DNA from: a virus
Taxonomy: Duplodnaviria; Heunggongvirae; Uroviricota; Caudoviricetes
Length of the DNA stretch: 15,279 nucleotides
Strand: one strand, 5' to 3'
IMG/VR virus record: IMGVR_UViG_2531839149_000015
Below are positions 1-14,823 of this stretch, one piece after another; positions within the stretch are counted from its first letter, which is position 1, and each line of letters begins with the position of its first letter. The position numbers and the translations under genes are program-made. Under the pieces are notes generated by a model. The model was given only the letters and a program-made list of their open reading frames with translations. It searched no databases and was not told the origin of the DNA.

Positions 1-90
1 TTGCCTCCCCCCCGTTGATGGGTAAAATAGCCGCAATTTTTCGTTTTCAACAAGCGCGGCGCGATGCCGCTTACTCAAGAAGAAAGAATT

Positions 91-165
91 ATGACGTTGT
101 CTCCTTATTTGCAAGAGGTGGCGAAGCGCCGCACTTTTGCCATTATTTCTCACCCCAATAATTAA
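91..165 (+). pseudogene. prfC: 5' fragment of prfC (peptide chain release factor 3) truncated at the prophage/host junction
   Basis: ATG at 91 translates [22 protein letters not shown], which I recall as the N-terminus of E. coli RF3, then diverges (NN, stop at 163-165) instead of continuing DAGKTT. Homology appears to end near 156/157. Confidence 0.55.
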
Positions 166-319
166 GCCCAAATTAAAGCTCTTTTACTCTTTCAAAATCC
201 TTTCAGTTAATTGAGCTTGAGCTATATAACTCATTTAAATACATTTGGTTATGTGGCTTCTTTAATTGAAAATTCTTTCATGTAACTTTAAATCGATCAG
301 TTTGCTTTCATCAAAAATC

Positions 320-376
320 TGTACATATGCTTGTACATAATGTACAAAACAGCAGAGGTGTTTTGCGATTTGTACA
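320..376. promoter_or_regulatory. Cluster of four TGTACA hexamers immediately upstream of int; candidate regulator-binding sites in the int promoter
   Basis: TGTACA at 320-325, 332-337, 341-346 and 371-376; TTGTACATAATGTACAA is near-palindromic. int RBS (AGGTGA) and ATG 386 follow directly. Confidence 0.3.
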
Positions 377-385
377 AGGTGAGTA

Positions 386-1609
386 ATGGCGTTGTCTGAT
401 GCGTGGTTGCGTTCAGTCGTTGGAAAGGAACGTGATAAGGTTTTGGTTAAATCCGATCGTGATGGTCTGTCTGTCAGAGTATCACCGAAAGGTCGCGTAG
501 TGTTCCAATATCGTTATCAATGGGCAGGGAAAGGTGAGCGTCTTGATATCGGAACTTACCCGGCAACTGGATTAAAAGAGGCCAGAGAAGAAGTTATCCG
601 TCTCCGTGGTGAACTTGAGTCAAACCGTAATCCACGATTGGTCAAGCAGGCTGAAAAACGAAAAGCTACTGAAGCCATGACGGTAGAGTCTGTGATCCGT
701 GCCTGGTATGAAGCATATTGTGTAAAAAATAAAAAAGGTTCTGAACAGATACTCCGCTCGTTTGAGCTGCACCTGTTCTCTAAAATCGGGAATATCCCTC
801 ACGATGCAGCTACATTGCATGATTGGTTAGAAGTCCTGGAGCCTCTTAGCACTAAGACTCCAGCAATAGCAGACCGATTGCTAATTAACGCAAAGCAGGC
901 CCATGTCTGGGCGTATAAGAGAAAGCTCATTGAAACTCGCCCGCTGTCGGATATCACGGGTAAAGATATGGATATCCGTAAAGGTCAGAAGAAACGGTTT
1001 CTGACACATGATGAAATTAAAATCCTTTATGCTGCGATCGATGGTTCTCGAATGGTTCCTAAATACCGGGCCTTCATTAAGCTATTGCTGCATTTTGGCT
1101 GCCGTAGTTCAGAGCTAATTACTGCCAGGGTGGGCGATTTTGATTTCATTAATAAGGTATGGACTGTACCACCAGAACGACATAAGACTGGAGAGATAAC
1201 AGGCGAACCGCTAAAGAGGCCCATTATTGAACCGGTGGAGGAGCTTATAAAGAACGCTATCTCTATGAACAATGGTTCCGATATGCTTTTTACTAAGGAA
1301 GGAAGCAGGGAACCCGTTGGTCGAACATCATTGCAGTCGCTGCCTTACAATTTAATGCAGTACGCATGGAGGCGTTTGGGGCATCAATTCCCTCATTGGT
1401 CTCTTCATGATTTGAGGCGAACAGCACGAACAAACTTTTCTGATCTTACTGCTCCTCATATTGCAGAAATAATGCTCGGCCATAAACTGCCAGGGGTTTG
1501 GCAGGTTTATGACAAGAGCGATTATCTAGAAGAACAGCGTAAAGCATATCAGGCATGGTGGGAGAGAGTTGAATCGATCGTTACTTGTACTGGCCCAGAA
1601 TCTACCTGA
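386..1609 (+). CDS. int: Tyrosine site-specific integrase, P4/CP4-57 type
   Basis: 407 aa. N-terminus MALSDAWLRS...GLSVRVSPKGRVVFQYRY is typical of the P4-integrase arm-binding domain; C-terminal catalytic region has HDLRRTA and a terminal Tyr region (VYDKSDYLEEQ). RBS AGGTGA upstream. Confidence 0.9.
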   Translation: MALSDAWLRSVVGKERDKVLVKSDRDGLSVRVSPKGRVVFQYRYQWAGKGERLDIGTYPATGLKEAREEVIRLRGELESNRNPRLVKQAEKRKATEAMTVESVIRAWYEAYCVKNKKGSEQILRSFELHLFSKIGNIPHDAATLHDWLEVLEPLSTKTPAIADRLLINAKQAHVWAYKRKLIETRPLSDITGKDMDIRKGQKKRFLTHDEIKILYAAIDGSRMVPKYRAFIKLLLHFGCRSSELITARVGDFDFINKVWTVPPERHKTGEITGEPLKRPIIEPVEELIKNAISMNNGSDMLFTKEGSREPVGRTSLQSLPYNLMQYAWRRLGHQFPHWSLHDLRRTARTNFSDLTAPHIAEIMLGHKLPGVWQVYDKSDYLEEQRKAYQAWWERVESIVTCTGPEST

Positions 1610-1865
1610 CAGCTTGCGTAGCCCTGACAGTCTGTTTTGAGCGAACAGTGGACATTTTCAATGGCATTCTTGAGTAGGTTACGCTTAGACCAGAAGTAAG
1701 AGGTGATAGAATTATCAACAATACATAAAACATAGGGGATCCTTATTGATTTATTGATCTTGACCAACTTATGTGATGCAGTATGTCTTTAACTTGTATT
1801 ACTATTATCTTTATCTTTATCTTGTTGTTTCTAATAAACTTATCTTATTTCAGAAAGGAGTTTTT

Positions 1866-3566
1866 ATGCATTTAGTCACGAAATCTTATTTCGATGCCTT
1901 TTGCAAAGCATTCGCTGCGCCCTATGAGGAGACCAAAAATTTTGAGGCGTTTGTGAACTATTGTGCTTTTTCAAAATACTCAGGCGACAAAGTTGAGGTC
2001 AGTGATCTTGTGTATGAAGGCCCGGACCCTGGTATTGATGGAGCATTTTTATTTTTAGACGACAGAGCCATTTTTTCAACTGAAGAACTTCAGGAGATTT
2101 TCCAAAACTCACGTCGCGAGTTTCAAGTTTCATTAGTATTCACGCAAGCTAAGTCATCGGAGAAGTGGAGCAAACAGGAAATAGACTCTTACATTGCGTC
2201 AATAAGAGATTATCTTTCACCAGCGCCACAACAACCCCACAGTGAATATCTAGCGGACTTTAAAAAAATGTTCAACTTGATATTTGCTAATATCGGCAGA
2301 GTCAAAAATGGCCTTCCAGACTTATACGCATATTTTTTTAGTGCTGCACAAAATACAGAGGCCAGAGAAATAAAAGCTGCATTTGCATCGGGTGAAAAAA
2401 GCTTAAAGTCACTCGGGTTTTCACATGAAACATCCTTCATTATGGCTCACAAAGACATGATTCATGAGCTTTGGCTTGCTGCGGAAGGTCCAATAGAAGC
2501 TAAACTTCCTACAATAGGCTATGCTCCATTCCCAGCGGCCCCTAATATTAATAATGCCTATGTAGCTACAGTCAAAGCTCGTAGTTTTATTGATTCTATA
2601 CTTAAAGACAAAAATGGAAACCCTCGAAAAAAATTATTCGAAGAAAATGTTAGAGATTTTCTGGGAATTGATGGTGACGTAAATTCAGAAATTGCAGGAA
2701 CACTAGATACTGATGGAAAAAAAGCAAGATTTGGTTTAATGAATAATGGAGTGACAATAGTTGCATCAAGCGTGAGGCCTGCAGGGCAAGAAATTTTTAT
2801 ACGAGATTTTCAAATTGTTAATGGATGTCAAACGTCTAATGTTCTTATATCAAAAGACATTCAAGTAGATGAATCAGTTAGTTTAATGATTAAATTAATT
2901 GAAACCGATGAGCCAGCGATCCTTGATGACATTGTACGAGCTACGAATAGACAATCTAAAGTTGAAGATGCACAGTTCATTTCAACGCTAAAAAAATTAA
3001 GGGAATTAGAACATTATTTTAATGCTAAAGGTGCTATTGAAGGAAATAAAATTTATTTTGAGAGAAGAAAGGGGCAGTATAGTTCAGAAAGTATAGCTCC
3101 AGTACGCATATTTGATATCAGAGAAGTTGCGCGAGCATATGCTGCTATTGTTATGATGAGACCAGATTATTCCAGTCGTTATCCAAATAGGTTAACTGGT
3201 GACTTACTTAATGAGGTTTTCTCTTCCGATGCCCTCGAGGATGATTATTATATATCTTGCTATTGCTTGTATAGGCTAAAGGCTCTTATCTCAAATAAGA
3301 GGTTTGATGGGAAGTATTCAAAATTACGCTGGCATATTCTAACTGCTGCGTCAAAATACTGTGGTAATAATTATAAGGCTTGGGGGTTCAAAAATAAAAA
3401 TGAAGCTCTTCATAACTTATTCTCAATGAATGATGGGGAGTGGTTTGAAAAACTTGAGAGTTTAGTAAAAATAGCTATACCAGATCCGGATATTTCTCGA
3501 GACTTACTAAAGTCGCAGCCTTTAACATCAACGATTCTCAAAAGTGTTGATAGCGTACCTAAATAA
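1866..3566 (+). CDS. AIPR-like abortive-infection protein (ParB/DndB-like fold with NGxQT-type motif); cargo gene between int and xis
   Basis: Strong RBS AAAGGAG (1854-1860) then ATG 1866; the ORF-track start at 1773 is an AT-rich leader artifact. 566 aa, markedly AT-rich versus flanks. Contains GIDG near the N-terminus and FQIVNGCQTSNVL in the middle, which I associate with the AIPR family. Followed by hairpin 3573-3591. Confidence 0.6.
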   Translation: MHLVTKSYFDAFCKAFAAPYEETKNFEAFVNYCAFSKYSGDKVEVSDLVYEGPDPGIDGAFLFLDDRAIFSTEELQEIFQNSRREFQVSLVFTQAKSSEKWSKQEIDSYIASIRDYLSPAPQQPHSEYLADFKKMFNLIFANIGRVKNGLPDLYAYFFSAAQNTEAREIKAAFASGEKSLKSLGFSHETSFIMAHKDMIHELWLAAEGPIEAKLPTIGYAPFPAAPNINNAYVATVKARSFIDSILKDKNGNPRKKLFEENVRDFLGIDGDVNSEIAGTLDTDGKKARFGLMNNGVTIVASSVRPAGQEIFIRDFQIVNGCQTSNVLISKDIQVDESVSLMIKLIETDEPAILDDIVRATNRQSKVEDAQFISTLKKLRELEHYFNAKGAIEGNKIYFERRKGQYSSESIAPVRIFDIREVARAYAAIVMMRPDYSSRYPNRLTGDLLNEVFSSDALEDDYYISCYCLYRLKALISNKRFDGKYSKLRWHILTAASKYCGNNYKAWGFKNKNEALHNLFSMNDGEWFEKLESLVKIAIPDPDISRDLLKSQPLTSTILKSVDSVPK

Positions 3567-3572
3567 AGAGAA

Positions 3573-3591
3573 GGGAAGCTTATTGCTTCCC
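3573..3591. terminator. Perfect 7-bp stem/5-nt loop hairpin just after the AIPR-like stop; U-run is on the minus-strand side
   Basis: GGGAAGC-TTATT-GCTTCCC. On the plus strand it is followed by AATAAATTA (weak); on the minus strand by TTCTCTTTATTT, so it may mainly stop leftward transcription. Confidence 0.35.
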
Positions 3592-3730
3592 AATAAATTA
3601 ACACACTTATAGAACCCTTGACTTAAACTTTTTACTGGTTCTCTCAGATATCGATAATTTTATAGGTTGTATCATAGCGTGATCGTCTTCAAGAGAAACA
3701 ACTTAACATTAAATTAGCAACGTTTGCTCT

Positions 3731-3770
3731 TGGCACAGACTTGACTGTCAGATTAGTTTGGTCTGTGCCA
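3731..3770. repeat. 10-bp perfect inverted repeat with 20-nt spacer, between the AIPR-like gene and the AlpA-like gene
   Basis: TGGCACAGAC (3731-3740) and GTCTGTGCCA (3761-3770). No adjacent U-tract, so a protein-binding or recombination site is as likely as a terminator. Confidence 0.4.
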
Positions 3771-3804
3771 TAGATATGTCAGCTCCCATCTGAGATAATA
3801 CACG

Positions 3805-3999
3805 TTACTCAATAACTCCAGCAAATCTGTATATCTTGCGTGATGCCCATTTATTTGGGCAGGATTTAATATCAGGATCTGGAAAGTCAGGCCTGTATTT
3901 CTGGCCAGTTCTCCTGTTTACGCTGTTCCAGCGAAGAACAGTCGATACTGAAACGCCACAGAAGTCGGCGACTTGTTTAGTTGTCATTAAGTTGTTCAT
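3805..3999 (-). CDS. AlpA/excisionase-family small HTH DNA-binding protein (candidate recombination directionality factor / int regulator)
   Basis: 64 aa; MTTKQVADFCGVSVSTVLRW is a helix-turn-helix typical of AlpA/Xis-type proteins. Start overlaps the stop of the upstream gene (TAATG), i.e. translationally coupled. Confidence 0.7.
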   Translation of the reverse strand: MNNLMTTKQVADFCGVSVSTVLRWNSVNRRTGQKYRPDFPDPDIKSCPNKWASRKIYRFAGVIE

Positions 4000-4619
4000 T
4001 ACTTCACCTCCTGCGGCGGCTCCGGTAGCGGCATCCAGTGGGTTACTTTCGATGCCGGTTCTTCCCTATCGTCAGTAACTGCCCACCATTTGTTTCTCGA
4101 CCAATCGTAATCCCCTTCGAAGGTATCGCACTCAGTCCAGCCGTAAGGCTTCCCCCAACACCAAACATACTGTTTATCGTTCGGCATTCGCTCACTACAG
4201 CTTATCCAACCATCCGGAGTTACTGGAGAGTTGCCCGACAGCTTGTTCAACTTGTAAGTCTGGCTTACAGGTTCGGCACCATGAAGCATGGCGGCGCGGC
4301 AGGCGTTCCAGCCTTCATCAAAACCGACTATGCCATTATTTAAAGACGGACGAGCATCTGGCACCACCGGCACTGGCTTGGCTATATATAGCGGCTGAAC
4401 ATACCAGCCCTTTGATAACCAACTGTCAGCAATGTTTTTACTCCTCGTTATTGCCGGAATACCTAAGCCATTTTCTGAATGCAGCCATGCCACCGGCTCC
4501 TCTTCTAGCGATGCCAGAGCAATTTCATAAGCACGGCGCTCAATATCGTCTCGAACCTCTAGGCTGCTGATTCGTTCTTTGATTTCTTTAATCAGTTCTT
4601 TATCGGTAAATGTGGTCAT
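3999..4619 (-). CDS. DUF551-type phage protein (yfdT-like position)
   Basis: 206 aa; C-terminal WISCSERMP...VTHWMPLPEPP matches the DUF551 signature as I recall it. Start overlaps the upstream stop. Confidence 0.65.
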   Translation of the reverse strand: MTTFTDKELIKEIKERISSLEVRDDIERRAYEIALASLEEEPVAWLHSENGLGIPAITRSKNIADSWLSKGWYVQPLYIAKPVPVVPDARPSLNNGIVGFDEGWNACRAAMLHGAEPVSQTYKLNKLSGNSPVTPDGWISCSERMPNDKQYVWCWGKPYGWTECDTFEGDYDWSRNKWWAVTDDREEPASKVTHWMPLPEPPQEVK

Positions 4620-4981
4620 TATGCTCCAGCCTCCGGTGCTTTTGGCATTACTGCCCAGTGAGTGATATTGACGTTTTCAAGGTCCCCGACCTGAAATGTC
4701 CACTGCCATTCTCCGGTTTCTTTTTGCCCCCATGTATCCCAGAGAGAACGCCAGCCAATCAGCCAGCCTTCTCCATTAGCATCAAATAACAAAACACTTT
4801 CATTTGCTGGTGGCAGTTCAGTTGACACTGGTATTACTTTGTTTTCCTGTGCTGCACATTTAGCTTCAAGCGCATCGAATTTACGCACTAGGTATTCAGC
4901 ATCCGTTTCATTCACTTTCAGATCTCGCGGTACACATCTCCCACGAAGAAACCCTTCCATTTCGAAAACATTCATGCGCAT
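4619..4981 (-). CDS. DUF551-like phage protein (yfdS-like; 120 aa)
   Basis: C-terminal ...NITHWAVMPKAPE resembles the DUF551 motif; overlaps both neighbours in a coupled operon. Confidence 0.6.
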   Translation of the reverse strand: MRMNVFEMEGFLRGRCVPRDLKVNETDAEYLVRKFDALEAKCAAQENKVIPVSTELPPANESVLLFDANGEGWLIGWRSLWDTWGQKETGEWQWTFQVGDLENVNITHWAVMPKAPEAGA

Positions 4982-5508
4982 TTGCGTAACTCCGATAATT
5001 CGTTAAAGCGTTCCATAAACATCCCGTAGGCATGGCCTGGAGCCAGTGGAATCACGTTGAACATCTCTGTTGCCGGGATACCTTCCAGCACAGGCCAGAA
5101 AGAGCCATCATCAAGCCCGAGATCGCGGCGTTCGGTTGCCAGCATAATGAGATCGGCATATTTCACTGGCGTGCTCATAACAGGAGGTAACCCGTATTTC
5201 TCACGGATTACGGCGTCTATTTTTTCTTCCATCCGTTTATAGTCAGGAAGAAGTCGTTTCAGTGGTGCGGGGATGTCCTGGCAATATGCTTCTGTTGCAT
5301 CATGCATTAAAGCTTCAAAAGCAAATTCCTGCGGCACCAGCTGGCTGCAAAGCACCGCATGTTGGGCGACGCTGTAGAAGTGAGAAAGATGACCGGCAAA
5401 GCGGCAGATATTTGAAAGGGAAACCGCGATATCGTTAATAACGATGTCGTCTTTATTTATCTTGTCATAATAAAAATGCTTCCCGGAAAAAGTTTTAATA
5501 AATGACAT
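4972..5508 (-). CDS. yfdR: HD-domain phosphohydrolase (YfdR-like putative 5'-deoxynucleotidase)
   Basis: Start moved to the ATG at 5508 (RBS GGAG 7 nt upstream; MSFIKTF...), giving 178 aa. H...HD metal-binding motif (AQHAV...ALMHDATEAY). Length and position match CPS-53 YfdR as I recall it. Confidence 0.65.
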   Translation of the reverse strand: MSFIKTFSGKHFYYDKINKDDIVINDIAVSLSNICRFAGHLSHFYSVAQHAVLCSQLVPQEFAFEALMHDATEAYCQDIPAPLKRLLPDYKRMEEKIDAVIREKYGLPPVMSTPVKYADLIMLATERRDLGLDDGSFWPVLEGIPATEMFNVIPLAPGHAYGMFMERFNELSELRKCA

Positions 5509-5602
5509 TTTGTTCTCCACTTTATATGCGCTGCACCGCGCTGAATTTTGGTTAAAGAAAACCCTCGCCATCAGGCGATTATTGAGTTAATTACGTTTCC
5601 AT

Positions 5603-5624
5603 AAATGCCCCCGCAGGGGCATTT
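5603..5624. other. Intergenic 9-bp stem hairpin between the yfdQ-like and yfdR-like genes
   Basis: AAATGCCCC-CGCA-GGGGCATTT. No clear U-tract on either strand; possible attenuator or RNA-processing/stability element. Confidence 0.3.
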
Positions 5625-5636
5625 GCAGTAATGAAA

Positions 5637-6461
5637 TCAGGCGGTGAAAGTACCAATAAAGGTTTCTACTTTGCTGTCTTTGAATTTTTCAACAAGCAGA
5701 TCACGAAATTCGTTAGCCATTTCTTCCTGCACTGCTTCCAGCTGAATAATGCGCAGAACCAGTACAGGGCGATCACCAGTGATAATGCTGAGGCGTAATT
5801 TAAACGGACGTTCTTTCAGGCCTTCAAACGGAACGCATTTAAACTCAAATGCTACTGGCATAATGTCTTTGGTTTTCGCTTCGACAGACTCCATCAGAGA
5901 GCGTTTGCCGCTGAAGTCATTGTCTTCAAAATCAGCGGTCTGGTTTGCTTCAATCGTGATTTTACGGACCGCCGCAGCCGCTTTTGTTGCCTGAATGGCG
6001 TCACCATTAGCATCAAAGCCCACAAGGTAGTCGGCCCAGTCTTCAATCCATTCTGCCAGTGACTTCTGGGAGTTACGCTCGCCGTTAACAGACAACAGAG
6101 CAGAGAACGGTGCTGTCTTTTTCAGTTTGAGAGTGGCGGTGTTATCTGCGTGACCTGGTTCATCAATAGTACCCAGGTTAAGCACACTGACGGCACGCAT
6201 ATTATCGGCATCGATAAAGCAGCGGGTGCCTTCATCTGCAAGAACTTTAGAATAACGGGTAAAGTCATCGATGCTGGCAGTGGAAAGCGCACCACGGAAA
6301 CGGAAGCGATTTAAATTAAATTTTTCCAGATCATGAATGCGGAAATTCTCAGGCAATGCCACAGCATCGGCACCAATCTTACTGATAATTTCATTAACAC
6401 CCTGAGCAGAAATAAGGGCATGGATTTGATTAATTGCGGTTGCGTCTAAGTTCTGAGACAT
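5637..6461 (-). CDS. yfdQ: DUF2303-family phage protein (YfdQ-like)
   Basis: 274 aa, same length and operon position as CPS-53 YfdQ as I recall it; uninterrupted ORF with normal composition. Confidence 0.6.
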
Positions 6462-6526
6462 AATAAGTCCTCACTATATAAAGATATTCAGTGATGAGAT
6501 AAATAATCGGTTAATTAAGAACGATA

Positions 6527-6889
6527 TTAATGACCTGCTGCGCGGAGTTTTCCGTCAGGTTCACCGGCAAGAGTCAGTAATTGTCCCTGGTCTTCCTGCA
6601 GAATAGTCAGGCGACCACCGCGATTGACATACATCGGCGTTTCGGTGGTGTCTTCTTCGGAAATTTTCCCGCGGTTAGTCGGGCGAACATATGAGAGTTT
6701 GTGTTTGATTTTCACACGGTTCTCATCAAATGGTTCGATTTCCAGGTTGAGTGAGACCTTACCTTTGGTTTTCGTGTTCATCACACCGGAAGCGACTTCA
6801 CTGAGAACTGCGCCGATTTTGGTTTCAAATACGCCGCCGTCCAGCTCCCCAATAAATGCCTGCACATCAGTACTGCGTTCGCTAGCCAT
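6527..6889 (-). CDS. Conserved phage early protein of unknown function (yfdP-like position, 120 aa)
   Basis: Start set at ATG 6889 (MASERSTDVQ...) with RBS AGGAG 7 nt upstream. The 226-aa ORF-track extension to 7207 is C/R/W-rich, non-protein-like text. Confidence 0.55.
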   Translation of the reverse strand: MASERSTDVQAFIGELDGGVFETKIGAVLSEVASGVMNTKTKGKVSLNLEIEPFDENRVKIKHKLSYVRPTNRGKISEEDTTETPMYVNRGGRLTILQEDQGQLLTLAGEPDGKLRAAGH

Positions 6890-6937
6890 TTTTCTGCTCC
6901 TAATCATATCGACCCTGCAAGGTCGGTTGGTTTCTCC

Positions 6938-7026
6938 ACAAAACAGAGAAGAACACCTGCGGTGGCAGCCGCCCGGATGGATTGGGTTATGAGCCCGTCG
7001 TCCGGTGATGTTCTTCTCTGTTTTGT
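6938..7026. repeat. 18-bp perfect inverted repeat (stem) enclosing a 53-nt GC-rich loop; core of a structured non-coding region
   Basis: ACAAAACAGAGAAGAACA (6938-6955) pairs perfectly with TGTTCTTCTCTGTTTTGT (7009-7026). No flanking U-tract. Further local hairpins lie 7080-7150. Confidence 0.55.
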
Positions 7027-7358
7027 AAAAAGAGCGGTACCAGCCGGAAGCAAGTGTACAAACTTGTACCGCGAGGACTACACACAGCATAAAGTTGTGG
7101 TGCCGGGTGCCTCCCGGTGCCTGGCGAAGGTTGCACACCAGGCGGGTGGGTATCCACAGAAGGTCGACTGTCAGCCTCAACCTTAACCCGCGTGCGCTGA
7201 GCCGCATTCACCACAACGCTAAGGATTCTCTCTGGTTGAAAATACTTAGCTGTTATGTGCCTGCTTTTAGCCACATCAGGCGAGGTGGACCTAGTTATTC
7301 CCCAACAACAAGGATTTGGTTAATCTGGATATCCCCAACAACTAGCTGAGTATTCAAC

Positions 7359-7880
7359 GTGATAGCTGAACTGTCTGCGGCTATGGCCGCTATAAAGGAG
7401 ACTGCCGGTCTTGCTAAGGTTATTAATGACGCGAAAACGGATGCAGAAGTTAAAGCTGCAACCATTGAACTCCAGAACAAACTAATCACGCTTCAGGCAG
7501 AATGCTTCTCTCTTGGCGATGCGATCCGCCTTCGTGATGAAGAGGTGATGCATCTCAAAGCAAAAATTGCAGAGTTTGAAGATTTTTGTGCCAAGGTAGA
7601 AGGATATGTCCTTGATCAGCTTGACTCTGGTGCTTTTGTTTACTCTAAAAATGAAATTGTGAGTGGAAAAGAAATAACTGTGCATCTGTGCCCACTTTGT
7701 TATTCCAAAAATATAAAATCGATACTTCATCCGCTTCCAGTAGGTAAAACTTCTCATTTTCTTACAAGCCGTTGCCTTCACTGTGAAAATAAATTTCTTA
7801 TGGAAAAAAATCCGATGTACGAACGACCAAGATCATTACGTGAGTTGGGGCGAGATCTGAATTCGCCTTGGATTCCTTAA
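7359..7880 (+). CDS. Hypothetical coiled-coil / C4 zinc-ribbon protein; moron oriented opposite to the early-left operon
   Basis: 173 aa from GTG 7359 (alternative ATG 7383). N-terminal heptad-like region (IELQNKLITLQAE...LKAKIAEFEDF), C-terminal CPLC...CLHC. AT-rich 3' half; own terminator at 7923-7945. Confidence 0.6.
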   Translation: MIAELSAAMAAIKETAGLAKVINDAKTDAEVKAATIELQNKLITLQAECFSLGDAIRLRDEEVMHLKAKIAEFEDFCAKVEGYVLDQLDSGAFVYSKNEIVSGKEITVHLCPLCYSKNIKSILHPLPVGKTSHFLTSRCLHCENKFLMEKNPMYERPRSLRELGRDLNSPWIP

Positions 7881-7922
7881 ATCTTGCATTGGTTGGATGA
7901 TACCCAGATTGTTAAAGAGCTA

Positions 7923-7945
7923 AGCGTCCTGTAGGGCGCTTTTTT
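7923..7945 (+). terminator. Rho-independent terminator of the moron gene
   Basis: AGCGTCC-TGTA-GGGCGCT (7-bp stem, one G-U pair) followed by TTTTT, about 45 bp after the stop at 7880. Confidence 0.6.
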
Positions 7946-8028
7946 GTTGCTAACGAATCATCCTGGACTTCATATGCCCCAGGCGGCTACTTCGTGGGCG
8001 TCCTGCCTGTTCGTTATCTTTGATATAA

Positions 8029-8057
8029 AATCTAACTTAACTTAGTTATCATGGCAA
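8029..8057 (-). promoter_or_regulatory. Candidate leftward (pL-like) promoter with overlapping operator
   Basis: On the minus strand: TTGCCA (-35; plus 8052-8057), 17-bp spacer, TAGATT (-10; plus 8029-8034). The 14-mer CTAAC-TTAA-CTTAG (8032-8045) overlaps the spacer/-10 and matches the operator architecture seen between cI and cro. Confidence 0.35.
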
Positions 8058-8110
8058 GAGAAAACACCAAACTTTTCTTAGTTCGGTGCCTTAGTTAGAG
8101 AAGAGAGGCC

Positions 8111-8737
8111 TTAGAGTTCGTATTGAACTCCTTTGACTACACCAATGATAAGGCAATTACCATTGATAGGGATGTTGGGATACCGAGGATTTAATGGTAC
8201 TAAAAACTTTTGAGGGCCATCGATGACTAATTTTTTTACTGTAGCTTCGTTTGTTCCATCAAGTCGAGCGATGACTATTTTTCCATGACGAGGTTCTGCA
8301 TCTGGATCTACAATCACTGTTGCGCCTTCTGGTATTGTTGGGAGGCCATTAGGGTTAGTCATGGAGTCACCTTTAACCTCTAATGCAAATGAGTTATCAC
8401 CAACCTTTAATGATGTATCTACCCACTTGTCCACTTCACTAAACACTTCTGCTGCCCTGCACTCAGTAAACTGCCCAGCCTGAACCCACGATATTACAGG
8501 AACTCTGCGCATGTTTGTGACGAGTTTGCCTTCAAACTCAGCACCATAAAGAATGTAATCTATTGACGTATTGAAGAACTTCGCTAATTTCGAAAGTGCC
8601 TCCCCACCAGGGGTATTGATGTCTTTCTCCCAGTACCCCACAGCAACGTCGCTTACTCCACAAAATTTACCCAATTCTTTCTGGGACGTTCTGGTAACTC
8701 TTCTCAGAGCTTTTATACGCTGACCAACCGTTTCCAT
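8111..8737 (-). CDS. cI: CI-like repressor (XRE-type HTH plus S24 LexA-like autopeptidase domain)
   Basis: 208 aa; N-terminal HTH (QKELGKFCGVSDVAVGYWE), C-terminal S24 signature with GDSM serine and KKL lysine; divergent from a cro-like gene. Confidence 0.85.
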   Translation of the reverse strand: METVGQRIKALRRVTRTSQKELGKFCGVSDVAVGYWEKDINTPGGEALSKLAKFFNTSIDYILYGAEFEGKLVTNMRRVPVISWVQAGQFTECRAAEVFSEVDKWVDTSLKVGDNSFALEVKGDSMTNPNGLPTIPEGATVIVDPDAEPRHGKIVIARLDGTNEATVKKLVIDGPQKFLVPLNPRYPNIPINGNCLIIGVVKGVQYEL

Positions 8738-8759
8738 AGGAGCACCATTTCTTTAATTG

Positions 8760-8822
8760 CTAAGTAATCTTAGTTTTTATTGACCAAAGATAGATTTGTA
8801 ATTAGCATCTAATAAAACTTAG
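8760..8822. promoter_or_regulatory. Divergent immunity promoter/operator region (two palindromic 14-mers flanking a sigma70-like promoter)
   Basis: O1 CTAAG-TAAT-CTTAG (8760-8773); -35 TTGACC (8780-8785); 17-bp spacer; -10 TAGCAT (8803-8808); O2 CTAAT-AAAA-CTTAG (8809-8822); RBS GGAGG (8826-8830); cro ATG 8835. Confidence 0.5.
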
Positions 8823-8834
8823 TTTGGAGGGCGT

Positions 8835-9035
8835 ATGACAACTGACGATATCGAAAGCTACTTCGGCAGTATTGAGAAAGTTGCTGCTTTTTTCGGCATA
8901 ACAACTGAAGCCGTTTATCAGTGGCGAAACCGTCCGGGCCAGTTAATTCCAAAAGGACGTGCAGCAGAAGCTGCATATAGAACTTGCGGACGGTTGCCAT
9001 TTAAACCTGAGCTTTATGAAAAATCTAATGGATAA
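8835..9035 (+). CDS. Cro-like small HTH regulator (YdaS/Cro-type)
   Basis: 66 aa; HTH (EKVAAFFGITTEAVYQWRNR); first gene of the rightward operon opposite cI. Confidence 0.7.
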   Translation: MTTDDIESYFGSIEKVAAFFGITTEAVYQWRNRPGQLIPKGRAAEAAYRTCGRLPFKPELYEKSNG

Positions 9036-9630
9036 ATCGATTAACAGAAACCACAGAACGATGAGGCTAACCGTGGGTAAGCATCACTGGAAAGTAGAAA
9101 AACAGCCTGAGTGGTACGTGAAAGCTGTCAGAAAAACTATCGCAGCGTTGCCGGGGGGTTACGCTGAAGCAGCTGACTGGCTGGATGTAACAGAGAACGC
9201 ATTATTTAACCGCCTTCGTGCCGATGGCGATCAGATTTTCCCGCTGGGATGGGCAATGATTTTGCAACGTGCTGGTGGAACTCACTTCATTGCTGACGCT
9301 GTGGCGCAGTCTGCAAATGGCGTCTTTGTGTCTCTTCCTGACGTCGAGGATGTGGACAACGCCGATATTAACCAGCGTCTGCTGGAAGTCATTGAACAGA
9401 TCGGCAGTTATTCAAAACAGATTCGTTCAGCAATCGAAGACGGTGTAGTGGAACCGCATGAGAAGACAGCAATTAACGACGAGCTGTATCTCTCAATTTC
9501 GAAGCTGCAGGAGCATGCAGCACTTGTCTACAAAATTTTTTGCATTTCAGAAAGTAATGACGCCCGCGAGTGTGCAGCTCCGGGCGTCGTGGCGTCGATT
9601 GCTTCTGGTTGTGGAGAAACTAACGCATGA
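9016..9630 (+). CDS. CII-like / YdaT-type phage regulatory protein
   Basis: Start uncertain (ATG 9016 or 9028, overlapping the cro end; ORF track begins 8959). Position after cro and general features suggest a CII/CP76-type regulator; assignment is by synteny and memory. Confidence 0.5.
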
Positions 9631-9965
9631 ACAGTTTAACAACACACTACCGTCGCTCGCAACTGATTGCGCTTCCTGTACCGGGTGGAAAAGCGAAGGT
9701 GGAGTATTGCTATGCAGTAAATGTACCAGGTGACAGGGAAATTGTAACCCACAGCTTTGCAGAGTGGGCTGTGGGTGATTTCAACCGGCAGAAGGAGACA
9801 GTCCTTTGCGACAAGTTAACCGCTGGTTCAAAGATCACTACGGAGTGCCCGTCAGAGTCATTCGTTGGGAACCGGAAACACAACGGGTTATCTACCTCCG
9901 CGAAGGCTATGAGCATGAGTGCTTCAGCCCGCTCGAACAGTTTCGTCGTAAATTCAGGGAAATAG
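9627..9965 (+). CDS. Hypothetical ORF coupled to the upstream gene; 3' portion probably not real
   Basis: ATG overlaps the upstream stop (ATGA). The C-terminal half is Ser-rich and low-complexity, and it overlaps a better-looking ORF in another frame (9806-9985). Confidence 0.3.
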
Positions 9966-9985
9966 AGGTCGGTCATGAGCACTAA
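9806..9985 (+). CDS. Small conserved phage protein (59 aa, TTG start); resembles DUF4222-type proteins found upstream of replication genes
   Basis: RBS AAGGAGA (9792-9798) 7 nt before TTG 9806; translation [59 protein letters not shown] has natural-protein composition; stop overlaps the start of the replication gene (coupling). Not in the ORF track because of the TTG start and length. Confidence 0.45.
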
Positions 9986-10916
9986 ATTAACCGGCTATGT
10001 ATGGGATGGTTGCGCTGCATCAGGCATGAAGTTATCCAGCGTGGCAATTATGGCCCGCCTGGCTGATTTCAGTAATGACGAAGGTGTGTGCTGGCCATCA
10101 ATTGAAACCATTGCCCGTCAGATTGGCGCGGGGATGAGTACCGTCAGAACGGCTATCGCACGGCTGGAAGCAGAAGGCTGGTTAACGCGTAAGGCGCGTC
10201 GCCAGGGTAACCGCAATGCGTCGAATGTTTATCAGCTTAACGTTGCGAAGCTTCAGGCAGCGGCATTTTCTCAACTGTCAGATTCTGACCCGTCAAAATC
10301 TGACGCATCAAAATCTGACCCGTCAAAATTTGATGCGTCGAAATCTGGCAAAAAAGCGGGTTTTCACCCGTCAGAATCTGGCGGGGATCCGTCAGTAAAA
10401 TCAAAACATGATCCGTCAGATAAAAAACCTTCTCGTCCGGACGCTTCGCAACCGGACACGCAGACGGATGAACAGGATTTTTTAACTCGCCATCCTGATG
10501 CGGTTGTATTCAGCCCTAAAAAGCGCCAGTGGGGGACGCAGGATGATTTGACCTGCGCACAGTGGCTCTGGAAAAAAATCATCGCCCTGTACGAGCAGGC
10601 TGCCGAATGTGACAGCGAGGTGGTTCGTCCCAAAGAACCGAACTGGACAGCCTGGGCAAACGAAATTCGCCTGATGTGTGTGCAGGATGGTCGTACTCAC
10701 AAACAAATCTGCGAGATGTACAGCCGCGTCAGCCGCGATCCGTTCTGGTGCCGTAACGTGCTCAGCCCGTCGAAGCTGCGGGAAAAATGGGATGAGCTTT
10801 CCCTGCGCTTATCGCCGTCCGTCAGCACGTACACAGAAAAACGCGAAGACCCGTACTTCAAAGCCAGTTACGACAATGTGGACTACAGCCAGATCCCGGC
10901 AGGATTCAGGGGGTGA
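9975..10916 (+). CDS. Phage replication initiation protein (N-terminal winged-helix DNA-binding domain, pentapeptide-repeat linker, C-terminal domain)
   Basis: 313 aa; N-terminal HTH (SIETIARQIGAGMSTVRTAIARLEAEGWL); central PSKSD/ASKSD repeats encoded by 15-bp DNA iterons; occupies the gene-O position after the cII-like gene. Confidence 0.75.
   Translation: MSTKLTGYVWDGCAASGMKLSSVAIMARLADFSNDEGVCWPSIETIARQIGAGMSTVRTAIARLEAEGWLTRKARRQGNRNASNVYQLNVAKLQAAAFSQLSDSDPSKSDASKSDPSKFDASKSGKKAGFHPSESGGDPSVKSKHDPSDKKPSRPDASQPDTQTDEQDFLTRHPDAVVFSPKKRQWGTQDDLTCAQWLWKKIIALYEQAAECDSEVVRPKEPNWTAWANEIRLMCVQDGRTHKQICEMYSRVSRDPFWCRNVLSPSKLREKWDELSLRLSPSVSTYTEKREDPYFKASYDNVDYSQIPAGFRG
10275..10349. repeat. Five contiguous 15-bp iterons inside the replication gene (candidate origin), with degenerate copies to about 10427
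   Basis: CTGTCAGATTCTGAC / CCGTCAAAATCTGAC / GCATCAAAATCTGAC / CCGTCAAAATTTGAT / GCGTCGAAATCTGGC; further CCGTCAGAATCTGGC (10368), CCGTCAGTAAAATC (10389), CCGTCAGATAAAAAA (10413) with A-rich stretches. Confidence 0.6.
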
Positions 10917-10918
10917 GC

Positions 10919-11407
10919 ATGAGTCTTTTGAATGACGTTCAGAAATTCATTGAAGCCCATCCGGGCTGTACTTCCGGAGACATTGCGGATGCTTTTGCAG
11001 GTTACTCACGGCAGCGCGTTCTGCAGTCAGCAAGCAAGTTACGTCAGAGTGGGCGTGTGGCTCACCGTTGTGAAGGAGATACACACAGACATTTCCCGCG
11101 CCTGACTGAGAGAGCGCAGGATCCGGAACCACAACCAGTTCGTGAAACCAGACCTGTGCGCAATTTCTATGTCGGCACTAACGACCCGCGGGTGATTTTG
11201 TGCCTGACCCGCCAGGCGGAAGAACTGGAGTCCAGGGGCTTATACCGTCGTGCTGCAACGGTGTGGATGGCGGCATTCCGTGAAAGCCACTCCCTGCCAG
11301 AACGAAACAATTTTTTGGCGCGTCGTGAACGGTGTTTACGGAAAAGCAGTAAGCGGGCTGCATCAGGTGAAGAGTGGTATCTCTCAGGGAATTACGTGGG
11401 GGCTTAA
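10919..11407 (+). CDS. Hypothetical protein with C-terminal PerC-like motif
   Basis: ATG 10919 (RBS AGGGGG; overlaps upstream stop). C-terminal LTRQAEELESRGLYRRAATVWM closely parallels RKAEELESKGLYRRAAARWM of the PerC-family ORF at 13738. No Walker motifs, so not a P/DnaC-type helicase loader. Confidence 0.6.
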   Translation: MSLLNDVQKFIEAHPGCTSGDIADAFAGYSRQRVLQSASKLRQSGRVAHRCEGDTHRHFPRLTERAQDPEPQPVRETRPVRNFYVGTNDPRVILCLTRQAEELESRGLYRRAATVWMAAFRESHSLPERNNFLARRERCLRKSSKRAASGEEWYLSGNYVGA

Positions 11408-12060
11408 TGAGTAATAAATATTGCCAGGCGCTGGTGGAACTGCGGAACAAACCAGCCCATGAACTGAAGGAAGTGGGCGATCAGTGGCGCACGCCGGACA
11501 ACATTTTCTGGGGAATTAACACCCTGTTTGGCCCGTTTGTTCTGGATCTGTTCACTGACGGTGATAACGCCAAATGTGCTGCGTATTACACGGCGGAAGA
11601 CAACGCGCTGGCGCATGACTGGTCAGAACGCCTTGCGGAGCTTAAAGGTGCTGCCTTTGGTAATCCCCCATACAGCCGCGCCAGTCAGCATGAGGGGCAA
11701 TACATCACCGGCATGCGTTACATCATGAAGCATGCCAGTGCCATGCGTGATAAAGGCGGGCGCTATGTTTTCCTGATCAAAGCTGCCACCAGCGAAGTGT
11801 GGTGGCCGGAAGATGTAGAACATATTGCTTTTATTCGCGGGCGTATTGGTTTTGAACTGCCTGCCTGGTTTATCCCGAAGGATGAGAAGCAGGTGCCGAC
11901 AGGCGCTTTCTTCGCTGGTGCTATTGCTGTTTTCGACAAGACCTGGAAGGGACCGGCAATCAGCTACATCGGGCGCGATGAACTTGAGGCATGTGGTGAG
12001 GCCTTTCTGGCGCAGATTCGCCAGCAGGCAGAAAAACTGGTCAGGGAGATGGCGGCATGA
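11407..12060 (+). CDS. Phage-type DNA N6-adenine methyltransferase
   Basis: Start at ATG 11407 overlapping the upstream stop; catalytic NPPY motif (AAFGNPPYSR); size about 217 aa typical of phage Dam-family enzymes. Confidence 0.8.
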   Translation: MSNKYCQALVELRNKPAHELKEVGDQWRTPDNIFWGINTLFGPFVLDLFTDGDNAKCAAYYTAEDNALAHDWSERLAELKGAAFGNPPYSRASQHEGQYITGMRYIMKHASAMRDKGGRYVFLIKAATSEVWWPEDVEHIAFIRGRIGFELPAWFIPKDEKQVPTGAFFAGAIAVFDKTWKGPAISYIGRDELEACGEAFLAQIRQQAEKLVREMAA

Positions 12061-12383
12061 CGACGTTAACTCAATGCCAGCAGCAGGTGCTGGATATGCT
12101 GATTTCTTATCAGAAAGAACGCGGCTTCCCGCCAACCAATCAGGAGGTGGCAACCATGCTGGGATACCGTTCGGTGAATGCAGCGGTGGAGCATCTTCGC
12201 GCACTGGAGAAAAAAGGCGTCATCACGATAAAGCGTGGTGTGGCCCGGGGGATCACGCTTCATACCGCGGTGAAGGACGACGACAGCGAGGCGGTCGGGA
12301 TTATCCGCTCACTGCTTGCCGGTGAGGAAAACGCAAGGCTGCGTGCAGCCCACTGGTTACATGAGAGGGGGCTGAAAGTATGA
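12057..12383 (+). CDS. LexA N-terminal DNA-binding-domain-like protein (no peptidase domain)
   Basis: 108 aa; MTTLTQCQQQVLDMLISYQKERGFPPTNQEVATMLGYRSVNAAVEHLRALEKKGVI parallels the LexA winged-helix domain; ends without an S24 domain. ATGA overlap with the Dam stop. Confidence 0.6.
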   Translation: MTTLTQCQQQVLDMLISYQKERGFPPTNQEVATMLGYRSVNAAVEHLRALEKKGVITIKRGVARGITLHTAVKDDDSEAVGIIRSLLAGEENARLRAAHWLHERGLKV

Positions 12384-12592
12384 AGCTGATTCTGCCTTTT
12401 CCACCCAGCGTGAACACCTACTGGCGACACCCCAACAAAGGGGCATTTGCTGGTAAGAGCCTGATAAGCGCGGCGGGGCGAAAATTCCAAAGTGCGGCGT
12501 GCACAGCAATAGTTGAGCAGTTACGTCGTCTGCCGAAACCAACGTCGGCACCTGCTTCAGTGGAGATCGTGTTGTTTCCTCCGGATATCTGA
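12380..12592 (+). pseudogene. rusA: Truncated rusA (Holliday-junction resolvase) N-terminal fragment
   Basis: LPFPPSVNTYWRH matches the RusA N-terminal motif; the ORF stops after ...VEIVLFPPDI (70 aa), where full-length RusA would continue with its catalytic acidic residues. No continuation in other frames; downstream sequence is unrelated. Confidence 0.65.
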
Positions 12593-12665
12593 CGTGATAA
12601 ATCGCGTTACATGACATCTCATGTTGTGCTGGTGGTTATCACGACGTTCTGAATCTGGCCTTTGC

Positions 12666-12698
12666 CTGATATTTTGCGACAAGTACGCGCGCGTAGCA
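12666..12698. repeat. Copy A of a ~35-bp imperfect direct repeat containing palindrome TACGCGCGCGTA
   Basis: CTGATATTTTGCGACAAGTACGCGCGCGTAGCA; about 75 bp downstream of the rusA fragment. Confidence 0.55.
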
Positions 12699-12721
12699 TC
12701 GACAGCATACACATTGGATAT

Positions 12722-12943
12722 TCATTTTGTGACCAATGCGATAAGTAGCGGGATAAGAATTGATAAAATCAACAGGCCGATGATCCACTTTTGATTTTCA
12801 CTGGCCTTATCTCTATTTTCATCAATCTTATCAATAATTCGACGCTCCAAGCCGTGCATATCACCGCGAATGGCAATCATCTCATTGCGAACATCCGAGA
12901 AGTGGTTGGCTTGATGTTCAATGTGTGGCGTTCTGCCTTTCAT
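12722..12943 (-). CDS. Small tail-anchored membrane protein (73 aa), unknown function
   Basis: Hydrophilic charged N-terminal region and a single C-terminal hydrophobic helix (WIIGLLILSILIPLLIALV); downstream of and co-oriented with the RHH-like gene. Confidence 0.5.
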   Translation of the reverse strand: MKGRTPHIEHQANHFSDVRNEMIAIRGDMHGLERRIIDKIDENRDKASENQKWIIGLLILSILIPLLIALVTK

Positions 12944-13022
12944 TCCTGATCCTCACCTATCGTCACCACCTGCTGGTGTATAAAGGTATTGGCCCAAGCA
13001 GCTTTCCAATGGGCACTCATGT

Positions 13023-13478
13023 TTATACGCTGACCTTACAATCAATCACCGCTTTTAACTTTTCAGCATTGCTTCCCTGACGCTTCCACGCGCTGTAAAT
13101 ATCTTTATCCCACGCTTTACCAGCTTTTGTTTGATAGCCTGCTTCATTGATCCGTTCAGCTATCACACGCCCATTATCAAATCCCTGTCGGATGGTATCG
13201 GCAATGATCTTTATAACTGCCGTTTCGTTATATGGCTTTGGTGGGATGTTCGGCTTTCCGGCAATAAGCGACGCAGCAGCTTTTTCCATGCGCTCCACCA
13301 GCCCAAGCATTCGTGAATCAATAGACTTTTCCGGCTGTCCCAGCTTCATGCGAATCGCATCAACAAGCCAGGAGGTTTTATCCCCTCCAGAAGCGAGAAC
13401 AGACCGATTAAACTCATCCTGCAATTCAGATGGGATGCGGAACGCGACCAGATTAGATTTGCTCATTGCAAAGACCAT
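13023..13478 (-). CDS. Putative DNA-binding regulator (ribbon-helix-helix-like N-terminus)
   Basis: N-terminal SNLVAFRIPSELQDEFNRSVLASGGDKTSWLVDAIRMKL resembles Arc/CopG-type RHH; C-terminal AGYQTKAGKAWDKDIYSAWKR resembles a recombinase-type DNA-binding helix. Start ambiguous (ATG 13478 or 13466); no clear SD. Confidence 0.55.
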   Translation of the reverse strand: MVFAMSKSNLVAFRIPSELQDEFNRSVLASGGDKTSWLVDAIRMKLGQPEKSIDSRMLGLVERMEKAAASLIAGKPNIPPKPYNETAVIKIIADTIRQGFDNGRVIAERINEAGYQTKAGKAWDKDIYSAWKRQGSNAEKLKAVIDCKVSV

Positions 13479-13580
13479 ATCAGTGAGTAATATCCATACA
13501 GTATATCACTGTATAACACTGTTATACGCTCAAATATCAGCCAGAAAATAACGGGCCAATCACAAAGCTATCGCTGTGTT

Positions 13581-13701
13581 GTTGGTTCAGAGCTGGGCTG
13601 TGTTGGTTCAAAATGAGTTGATGTTGGTTCAATATTTTAGAAAAAACATAATAAAAACAACGATCTTTACAAATTGAACCAACTGAACCAACTGAACCAA
13701 C
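13581..13701. repeat. Iteron-like array: three GTTGGTTCA direct repeats phased at 21 bp, then three tandem inverted copies TGAACCAAC
   Basis: GTTGGTTCA at 13581, 13602, 13623; TGAACCAAC at 13675, 13684, 13693; AT-rich spacer between; lies between divergent genes (13478 minus, 13738 plus). Confidence 0.6.
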
Positions 13702-13737
13702 ACCTTTTTGCTTATCTATATAATCTGAGAGGCAGAA

Positions 13738-14019
13738 ATGATAAGGGACAGGAAAGCTGAAGAGCTGGAGTCAAAAGGGCTATACCGGAGAGCTGCCGCA
13801 CGATGGATGGAAGTCATGCTGTTATGCAGCGAGGACGATGATCGGGAATGGATAAAGCGCCGCCGTGAAACGTGTCTGGAGAACGTGAAGCGCCCGCCCG
13901 TGAAGGTTGAGGAATTTGGCGACCTGCATAAAGCTGTTACCGAAACGCAACACCGCATGGGGATAGCGCAACCGAACGGTAACGCCTTCCGGTTAAATGG
14001 CGGCAAGAGGCAAAGGTAG
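13738..14019 (+). CDS. PerC-family transcriptional activator (Pch-like)
   Basis: 93 aa; MIRDRKAEELESKGLYRRAAARWMEV... matches the PerC/Pch signature as I recall it; RBS GAGAGG upstream. Confidence 0.6.
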   Translation: MIRDRKAEELESKGLYRRAAARWMEVMLLCSEDDDREWIKRRRETCLENVKRPPVKVEEFGDLHKAVTETQHRMGIAQPNGNAFRLNGGKRQR

Positions 14020-14055
14020 ACCACCAGAGGGAAATCATCCTCTGGCTGGCGGTTT

Positions 14056-14090
14056 CTGGTATTTCGGGACAAGTACGCGCGCGCGTAGCA
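14056..14090. repeat. Copy B of the ~35-bp imperfect direct repeat
   Basis: CTGGTATTTCGGGACAAGTACGCGCGCGCGTAGCA; three mismatches and a 2-bp CG expansion relative to copy A; about 40 bp after the PerC-family stop. Confidence 0.55.
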
Positions 14091-14316
14091 CCCAATCGGT
14101 GAGGAAATAGCGGCGACCTGAATGGTCAAAATCACAACGCAGCTATCCCCGTAAGCAGCGCTTAACGGAATAGCAGTAACCTGAATCCAGTGGGGAGGGG
14201 GTAGTCAAATCTCTACAGCCCTGACTATCCGGGACTGCCCGCCCCATCGTTTTTTTATACCCGCGAAAAATGAAATTTAATCCGGGCGTGTTTCATCCTT
14301 CCAGAGGGTATGACGT

Positions 14317-14502
14317 ATGACACCACGCGAAATAGCTTTATTGACCACCGCCAAACTGGAGCACGAAGGCCACCAGCTAACCCCGGCAGATCAACGGGAG
14401 ATAGAACGCTCAGTTAATGCCAATATAGCCCGGCGTGACAAATTTCGCGAAATGATGCGATCCCCCGCCTACCAGTGGAAGAAGCCTGCGCCGCGCAGGT
14501 AG
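14317..14502 (+). CDS. Small hypothetical basic protein (61 aa)
   Basis: ATG 14317 preceded by AGAGGG; hydrophilic with a basic C-terminus; no recognisable motif. Could be a partner of the downstream Panacea gene or a spurious ORF. Confidence 0.35.
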   Translation: MTPREIALLTTAKLEHEGHQLTPADQREIERSVNANIARRDKFREMMRSPAYQWKKPAPRR

Positions 14503-14823
14503 ATTACCTTTATTCACCTTTATATATTCGAACAACAAAACCTCTCGCAGGTCTCGCCAATAAAGGGATATAGCAGTAACTATGACCGCCGAATGGCAAA
14601 GCTACGATGCAAGTCGCTGGTTTCCAAACTTGAGGTTTCCAGGACGGTTTCAACCAAATTGCGGATTATCAGCCAAACGCACCGGGTATCTTGCGCGGTG
14701 GATGGTGAGCCATCACGCAGAATCTTTAAATGGCATTTTACGATGGGCAATACCCGTGGTTATATGCGATTATTAACGGTAGTGGACAGTTATAGACGAA
14801 AACATACGGCAGGAGATTGGATA

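Follow-up and report, generated by a model that had tools for sequence, protein, structure and literature searches.

[quoted passage not shown] The features on which our analysis draws are the following.

1..90, plus strand: host DNA, the whole yjjG-prfC intergenic region, 100% identical to MG1655
91..165, plus strand: remnant open reading frame of 24 aa, consisting of native prfC codons 1-22 and a phage-derived Asn-Asn-stop (by translation and by K-12 identity up to base 155)
136..155, plus strand: block of host/phage identity, TTTGCCATTATTTCTCACCC, 20 bp, codons F-A-I-I-S-H-P just before the RF3 P-loop
156..385, plus strand: phage P' arm, from the core to int, matching attP of the free phages cdtI and Ayreon
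320-325, 332-337, 341-346 and 371-376: TGTACA repeats in the P' arm
386..1609, plus strand: tyrosine integrase, 407 aa, reading away from attL (Pfam; phrog_1)
1773..3566, plus strand: AIPR/AbiU-type abortive-infection protein, cargo between int and xis (AIPR 5.6e-43, Pfam; AbiU 2.8e-111, PADLOC; PHROG Abi-alpha-like)
3805..3999, minus strand: excisionase Xis of 64 aa, closing the leftward early operon and transcribed toward int (phrog_1553, E = 7.7e-36)
8111-8737, minus strand: cI-like HTH and S24 repressor

According to our analysis, positions 91-165 are, with high confidence, the attL site of a lambdoid prophage of the type represented by cdtI, Ayreon, and the Stx phages residing at prfC.

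The junction and its four attachment sites

Bases 1-155, that is, the 90-bp yjjG-prfC spacer and the prfC 5' end, align with E. coli K-12 MG1655 without a single mismatch, and since this is a 155/155 identity to a known locus, the match on the host side is not a chance resemblance. The first mismatch to K-12 is base 156, the third base of prfC codon 22 (CCC versus CCG, synonymous), so that 22 RF3 codons are retained and are followed by Asn-Asn-stop; positions 91-165 read ATG ACG TTG TCT CCT TAT TTG CAA GAG GTG GCG AAG CGC CGC ACT TTT GCC ATT ATT TCT CAC CCC AAT AAT TAA. A preliminary description of this DNA had recognized the first 22 codons of prfC running into a stop and had taken them for an attachment-site junction inside the 5' end of the gene. 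The first reading holds on alignment with the uninterrupted prfC of MG1655, by which the att core was also defined, and the second is borne out by the comparison of attB, attP, attL, and attR presented below. No intact prfC lies to the left, because in strain AR434, whose junction is identical to that of the window, yjjG ends directly before window position 1. The preliminary description had also seen no tRNA gene at this end, in agreement with ARAGORN, which finds none anywhere in the window; a search for Rfam families gave no match in the window. The native prfC promoter and ribosome-binding site should lie within positions 1..90. The prfC promoter scan returned sites in the window no more numerous than in shuffled sequence, and the single promoter-like match upstream of the remnant, TTGCCT-16-TAAAAT at 1-28, is not above chance.

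The relation among the four attachment sites was built from six sequences (MG1655, Ayreon, cdtI, the window, AR434, and LC727877) and reads as follows.

attB (MG1655): host left ...CGCCGCAC TTTGCC ATTATTTCTCACCC GGACGCCGGTAAG... host right
attP (Ayreon, MF807953; cdtI, AB285204, a circular record): P arm ...AAAAGAAGAACC TTTGCC ATTATTTCTCACCC CAATAATTAAGCC... P' arm, int
attL (window): host left followed by the phage P' arm
attR (AR434; prophage record LC727877): phage P arm followed by host right

The left flank of the window site is thus that of the unoccupied attB and its right flank that of the phage attP, the sequence from base 156 on being the right side of attP in the free phage genomes cdtI and Ayreon. 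Whereas the 20-bp block at 136-155 is an identity between the host and Ayreon-type phages, the minimal core common to attB, attP, attL, and attR is ATTATTTCTCACCC, 14 bp, at window positions 142-155. In cdtI and the Stx2c phages, GCA stands in place of GCC at 139-141, and in lysogens attR has the A and attL the C; because the GCA variant remains on the attR side, strand exchange is placed within the 14 bp from 142 to 155. The record LC727877 annotates the identical 14-bp duplication. The window itself contains only one copy of the core, no second copy (attR) being present in it when up to two mismatches were allowed; it ends inside the prophage, and attR was characterized in other genomes carrying an identical attL, such as AR434 and LC727877.

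The integrase, its arm sites, and the remainder of the window

The integrase gene starts 220 nt after the stop codon of the remnant, which confirms the preliminary placement of an integrase directly after it (386-1609, plus strand). Its product matches Arm-DNA-bind_3 (PF13356, 1.8e-16), Phage_int_M (PF22022, 1.3e-7), and Phage_integrase (PF00589, 1.6e-17), and residues R240, R344, H366, and Y375/Y380 are invariant across 12 relatives, Y375 and Y380 both being candidate nucleophiles. It is 97.3% identical to the cdtI integrase, 97.8% identical to that of Ayreon, and 39% identical to IntSXT. With its predicted N-terminal Arm-DNA-bind_3 and catalytic domains, the protein fits the DUF4102 type, i.e., the IntSXT subgroup, which includes P4. 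The earlier assignment to a P4-type integrase is therefore right as to domain architecture but not as to phylogenetic cluster, since the 97%-identical cdtI integrase sits in the SXT cluster (PMC8138268). Smyshlyaev et al. (2021, PMC8138268) assign the integrases of cdtI and SXT to a single cluster that targets prfC, apart from the tRNA-targeting P4 cluster; the latter is characterized by insertion downstream of a tRNA gene (PMC8138268), whereas the target here is prfC and there is no tRNA.

The hexamer TGTACA occurs six times in the window, four of the copies lying at 320-376, at offsets of +178, +190, +199, and +229 from the core. In the 4-kb locus of Ayreon we counted nine copies, all between -229 and +229 of the core, where 0.86 would be expected, and none of 200 shuffles (0/200) reached nine. 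The offsets are +177, +189, +198, and +227 in a Salmonella relative with an 84% identical integrase, and +163, +177, +189, and +229, hence largely kept, in Xenorhabdus innexi (integrase 64% identical); in both relatives the sequence between the repeats has diverged while the offsets are kept. As the integrase has an arm-binding domain, these repeats are most likely arm-type Int binding sites, as far as can be judged from sequence. The last repeat (371-376) adjoins the Shine-Dalgarno sequence of int, AGGTGAG (TGTACAAGGTGAG...ATG), an adjacency that hints at autoregulation. The host prfC promoter region now faces int, which follows 220 nt downstream on the same strand. A scan for terminators between the remnant and int found none, and on folding an A/U-rich hairpin at ~219-259, followed by the U-rich stretch UCUUUAAUU, is the only candidate stop before int.

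Beyond int, the gene for the AIPR/AbiU-type protein is part of the prophage end module, outside the recombination machinery. Where the same int occurs in other E. coli genomes, Dsr1 (a defence-associated sirtuin) or other large genes occupy the place between int and xis, which looks like a variable position for anti-phage cargo. In addition to Xis and the cI-like repressor, the window encodes further lambdoid genes, namely DUF551 and YfdQ-type early genes, a CII-like protein, a replication protein, a PerC-like activator, and a Dam-type methylase. The 15 kb seen contain neither stx nor cdt genes, and the 15 kb after int contain no transfer or conjugation genes. Positions 1-7072 are 99.7% identical to the prfC element of AR434, and the two differ beyond 7072. 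In finished E. coli genomes, at most 69% of the window is matched at any one place, which we read as the mark of a prophage mosaic, and by these alignments the window appears to be a recombinant between lambdoid prophages. In several of the genomes in which the prfC attL is present, a prophage residing elsewhere in the chromosome is 99.3% identical to positions 4974-15279.

The prfC reading frame at the far junction

At attR, the phage P arm gives ...caaagagacagcaatt ATG ACA AGC CTT TTG GCC GCA GAG GTA GCG AAA AGA AGA ACC, running on into the core and then the prfC body. The phage contribution amounts to a new ATG and seven codons, and the hybrid RF3 is one residue shorter than the native protein. 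In AR434 the hybrid prfC is a complete open reading frame of 528 aa, 519/521 identical to K-12 RF3 from residue 8 on, and is annotated as prfC in RefSeq; the prophage there is a decayed remnant of ~20 kb with several pseudogenes, and prfC is nevertheless intact. Over the 14 codons in which the phage and host copies overlap (E..P), 5 codons and 7 nucleotides differ, and all differences are synonymous. This is the pattern expected if the phage piece is kept as coding sequence, and it argues for purifying selection on it. Furthermore, the start context aattATGAC is identical in the native and phage copies.

With regard to transcription, a standard scan of the plus strand detected no sigma-70 promoter in the 300 nt before the substitute start codon. 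When the scan of the shared ~170-nt P arm was relaxed, it gave weak candidates only (8/12 or less) and an extended -10-like element, TGcTATGCT, whose end lies 81 nt ahead of that ATG. Ogura et al. (2007, PMC2323221) described that, with the Stx1 phage of O103 at prfC, RF3 is altered over a short N-terminal stretch and the gene loses its native ribosome-binding site and promoter, and they stated that it was unknown whether the hybrid prfC is transcribed or translated. We infer that the hybrid prfC may be transcribed from a phage-borne promoter and yield a functional product, and overall we hold it probable that prfC is rebuilt and functional in lysogens.

The proposed mechanism is as follows. 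Int would recombine attP with attB within prfC codons 16-22, at the core ATTATTTCTCACCC directly upstream of the P-loop codons. Integration thereby splits prfC. At attL, as seen in the window, codons 1-22 remain behind their native promoter region and run into a phage stop, whereas the body of the gene comes to lie at attR, about 20-50 kb away, where the phage P arm supplies a substitute ribosome-binding region, an ATG, and seven codons, restoring a full-length hybrid RF3 reading frame. The TGTACA clusters on both arms would likely serve as arm-type sites for the N-terminal arm-binding domain of Int, and Xis (3805-3999, minus strand) together with Int would drive excision, reversing integration. 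Free-phage records with an intact attP exist, including cdtI and Ayreon, and this prophage copy may still be able to excise.

The preliminary description had called prfC essential and had held that the phage must supply a prfC 5' end at the far junction. The supply itself is found, in AR434 and LC727877 as well as in the attP of cdtI and Ayreon. The necessity is not, as prfC is dispensable: Delta-prfC strains of E. coli are in routine use (PMC2791158) and Ogura et al. note that the gene is not on the essential-gene list (PMC2323221), and since it is non-essential, the phage is not forced by lethality to give a new 5' end. This dispensability is one of the points in favor of a different view of the locus, according to which the junction is real but the prophage inactivates prfC, the far-end ATG being a relic and lysogens having no functional RF3; loss of function would be tolerated since the gene is dispensable. 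The absence of a good promoter match upstream of the substitute start and the open question on expression left by Ogura et al. (2007, PMC2323221) point in the same direction, as does the study of Bobay et al. (2013, PMC3603311), where prfC counts as "disrupted" by prophages, although that statement overlooks the rebuilt reading frame. We nonetheless deem inactivation unlikely. The rebuilt frame is full length and annotated as an intact prfC in every genome listed, attR is present in 700 genomes, and the hybrid frame survives even in the decayed AR434 prophage; none of the 7 nucleotide changes across the 14 shared codons alters the protein, and the ATG context is the same as at the native start. 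Moreover, the analogous SXT element is reported to give a promoter and an N-terminus (PMC8409611).

Two other explanations concern the element and the junction rather than the fate of the gene. That the element might be an SXT/R391-type ICE, or a P4-like satellite or island, instead of a lambdoid prophage is suggested by the use of the same prfC codons by SXT/R391 ICEs and by the DUF4102-type architecture common to P4 and SXT integrases. We regard it as highly improbable, given that membership in SXT/R391 means a nearly identical integrase (about 99%; PMC2791158), against the 39% found here, that int of SXT is separated from attL by 0.7 kb or more and is read toward attL, the reverse of the layout found here, that the window encodes Xis, a cI-like repressor, CII, a replication protein, and Dam, and that its integrase and attP match those of the plaque-forming or inducible phages cdtI and Ayreon. 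Hardly conceivable at all is an artefact of assembly or prophage prediction, or a one-off rearrangement, in place of site-specific recombination. The window does start exactly at a gene boundary, at the same base as an IMG/VR predicted-prophage contig to whose beginning it is essentially identical, so its left edge was set by software; however, the identical junction occurs in 701 independently finished genomes, and both parental sites and the reciprocal product are present in other records.

Distribution, relatives, and comparison with known systems

With a 400-bp query and a cut-off of at least 80% coverage, attL was found in 701/5426 complete E. coli genomes, and attR, searched with a 381-bp query, in 700/5426. 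The P arm is at least 98.6% identical in 33 phage records, among them four phage genomes outside the set of prophage-derived Stx records (Ayreon, cdtI, 2H10, and PhiR63_1), and prfC is a listed integration site of Stx phages (PMC8065619; PMC10132054). With about 13% of finished E. coli genomes carrying an element at prfC, the junction is of value for annotation: the 24-aa remnant is routinely annotated as a pseudogene or "hypothetical protein", and at least one comparative study (PMC3603311) scored prfC as disrupted despite the rebuilt frame. In the phage records, the 23-codon prfC-like open reading frame is unannotated in both cdtI and Ayreon, and orf31 of cdtI (locus 1291-1494), a "hypothetical protein" called across attP, lies in another frame than the substitute prfC start and was probably called in error.

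A prfC remnant ahead of int is also found in relatives from Salmonella (integrase 84% identical), Xenorhabdus (64%), and Shewanella and Pseudomonas (50-52%), each with TGTAC-type repeats (TGTACA or GTACA) before int. In Shewanella and Pseudomonas the prfC stub precedes int although the neighborhood of prfC differs there, and since these remnants precede integrases of 50-52% identity, prfC targeting is much broader than the E. coli phage group. In Shewanella (locus 2739-2830) and Pseudomonas (2739-2815) the remnants end at the same IISHP codons, ~200 nt upstream of int. A Pantoea agglomerans relative (integrase 55%, locus 2786-3001) shows upstream of int neither a remnant of prfC or another GTPase nor a tRNA, and has one TGTACATAAT; Moraxella phage relatives (integrase 40%) have a different layout. 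A tblastn search of phage records with the Salmonella-type integrase found no free phage of the 84% Salmonella type, and an IMG/VR scan with the 12-integrase alignment brought up only E. coli loci that are nearly identical to one another and mostly truncated at int, hence no attP diversity on which to examine selection on the substitute start more broadly.

The same tblastn search brought up Gifsy-1 (NC_010392, locus 1-260) and SPN3UB (JQ288021, locus 1240-1510), whose integrases are 45-47% identical to that of the window. Their target in Salmonella is not prfC but lepA, another translational GTPase gene; integration of Gifsy-1 in lepA is known and was reported to occur without change of lepA function (PMC4632033). 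In both phages attP includes a substitute start of lepA, ATGAAGAATATAAGAAATTTCTCCATCATTGCTCACATCGATAATTGA or MKNIRNFSIIAHIDN*, which runs up to the core. The core falls in the codons for the P-loop lead-in of LepA, FSIIAHID, which is paralogous to FAIISHPD of RF3. The lepA-type attP appears to be homologous to the prfC-type attP: the two are identical at 14/20 positions in the core segment and at 28/46 around the core, have ATAATT(A/G)A in common on the side of the phage, have a similar spacing from core to int (222 versus 244 nt), and bear arm repeats in the same places that differ by one base (TGTCCA/TGGACA in the lepA type, TGTACA in the prfC type). In a midpoint-rooted neighbor-joining tree of nine integrases, SXT is outermost, followed by the lepA pair and then by the other prfC types, an order that is only suggestive as support for a history of targets, and prfC specificity spans the SXT ICEs (39%), Pseudomonas and Shewanella elements (50-52%), and enterobacterial phages. 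These sequence comparisons suggest a target switch between the paralogous GTPase genes prfC and lepA. Tentatively, and with a somewhat less than even chance of being right, we propose that this integrase lineage may be specialized for the segment of translational GTPase genes that encodes the P-loop lead-in (F-x-I-I-x-H), inserting in every case at the 5' end and bringing along a substitute promoter and start. If this is true, a switch of target gene would have arisen via sequence similarity between paralogous host genes. In an incomplete literature search, we found no publication linking the prfC and lepA sites as paralogous.

The arrangement at the prfC junction is already known, for phages since 2007 (Ogura, PMC2323221) and for SXT since 1999 (Hochhut and Waldor, as cited in later work).

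The window belongs to the cdtI/Stx group of prfC phages and is neither an SXT/R391 nor a P4-cluster element. The lambdoid phages of this group comprise the Stx1 phage of O103 (PMC2323221), the Cdt-I phage (AB285204; Asakura et al. 2007, as cited in PMC8138268), the Stx1a/Stx2c phages of CC119 (PMC10132054; LC727876-LC727902), Ayreon, and 2H10. The core, P' arm, and phage-borne prfC start of cdtI, Ayreon, and the Stx2c phage LC727877 match those of the system described here. The cargo and the rest of the genome are mosaic, other members having different genes next to int in place of the AIPR/AbiU gene found here.

SXT/R391 ICEs likewise integrate in the 5' end of prfC (PMC2791158; Hochhut and Waldor 1999, cited second-hand). 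We collected 76 SXT/R391 loci via a published ICE primer, with integrase identity taken from 40+ loci. At attL in seven species spread over Vibrio, Enterovibrio, Providencia, Brenneria, Limnobaculum, and Tolumonas, host prfC is followed by the ICE-derived DAAQPFNA*, the boundary between host and ICE falling at the same I-I-S-H-P(-D) codons as in the window. The two kinds of element thus share a short remnant frame at attL and homologous integrases of the same published cluster (PMC8138268), but the arm sequences of SXT/R391 differ from those of the window, its elements are conjugative and not phages, and the cleavage positions may be offset by a few bases. The window element is accordingly of a different family with an overlapping site.

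P4 and Sf6, which use tRNA 3' ends, have the same integrase domain architecture and an int that lies beside att and reads away from it. Their target, however, is the 3' end of a tRNA gene, which is duplicated, whereas the target in the window is the 5' end of a protein gene, whose promoter and start codon are replaced. In this latter respect a parallel is offered by elements integrating in dusA, such as IMEVchUSA3 (PMC8409611), which also use the 5' end of a conserved gene and give it a new promoter and an altered N-terminus; their integrase lineage and target gene are unrelated to those of the prfC phages, and in their case expression was shown experimentally (PMC8409611).
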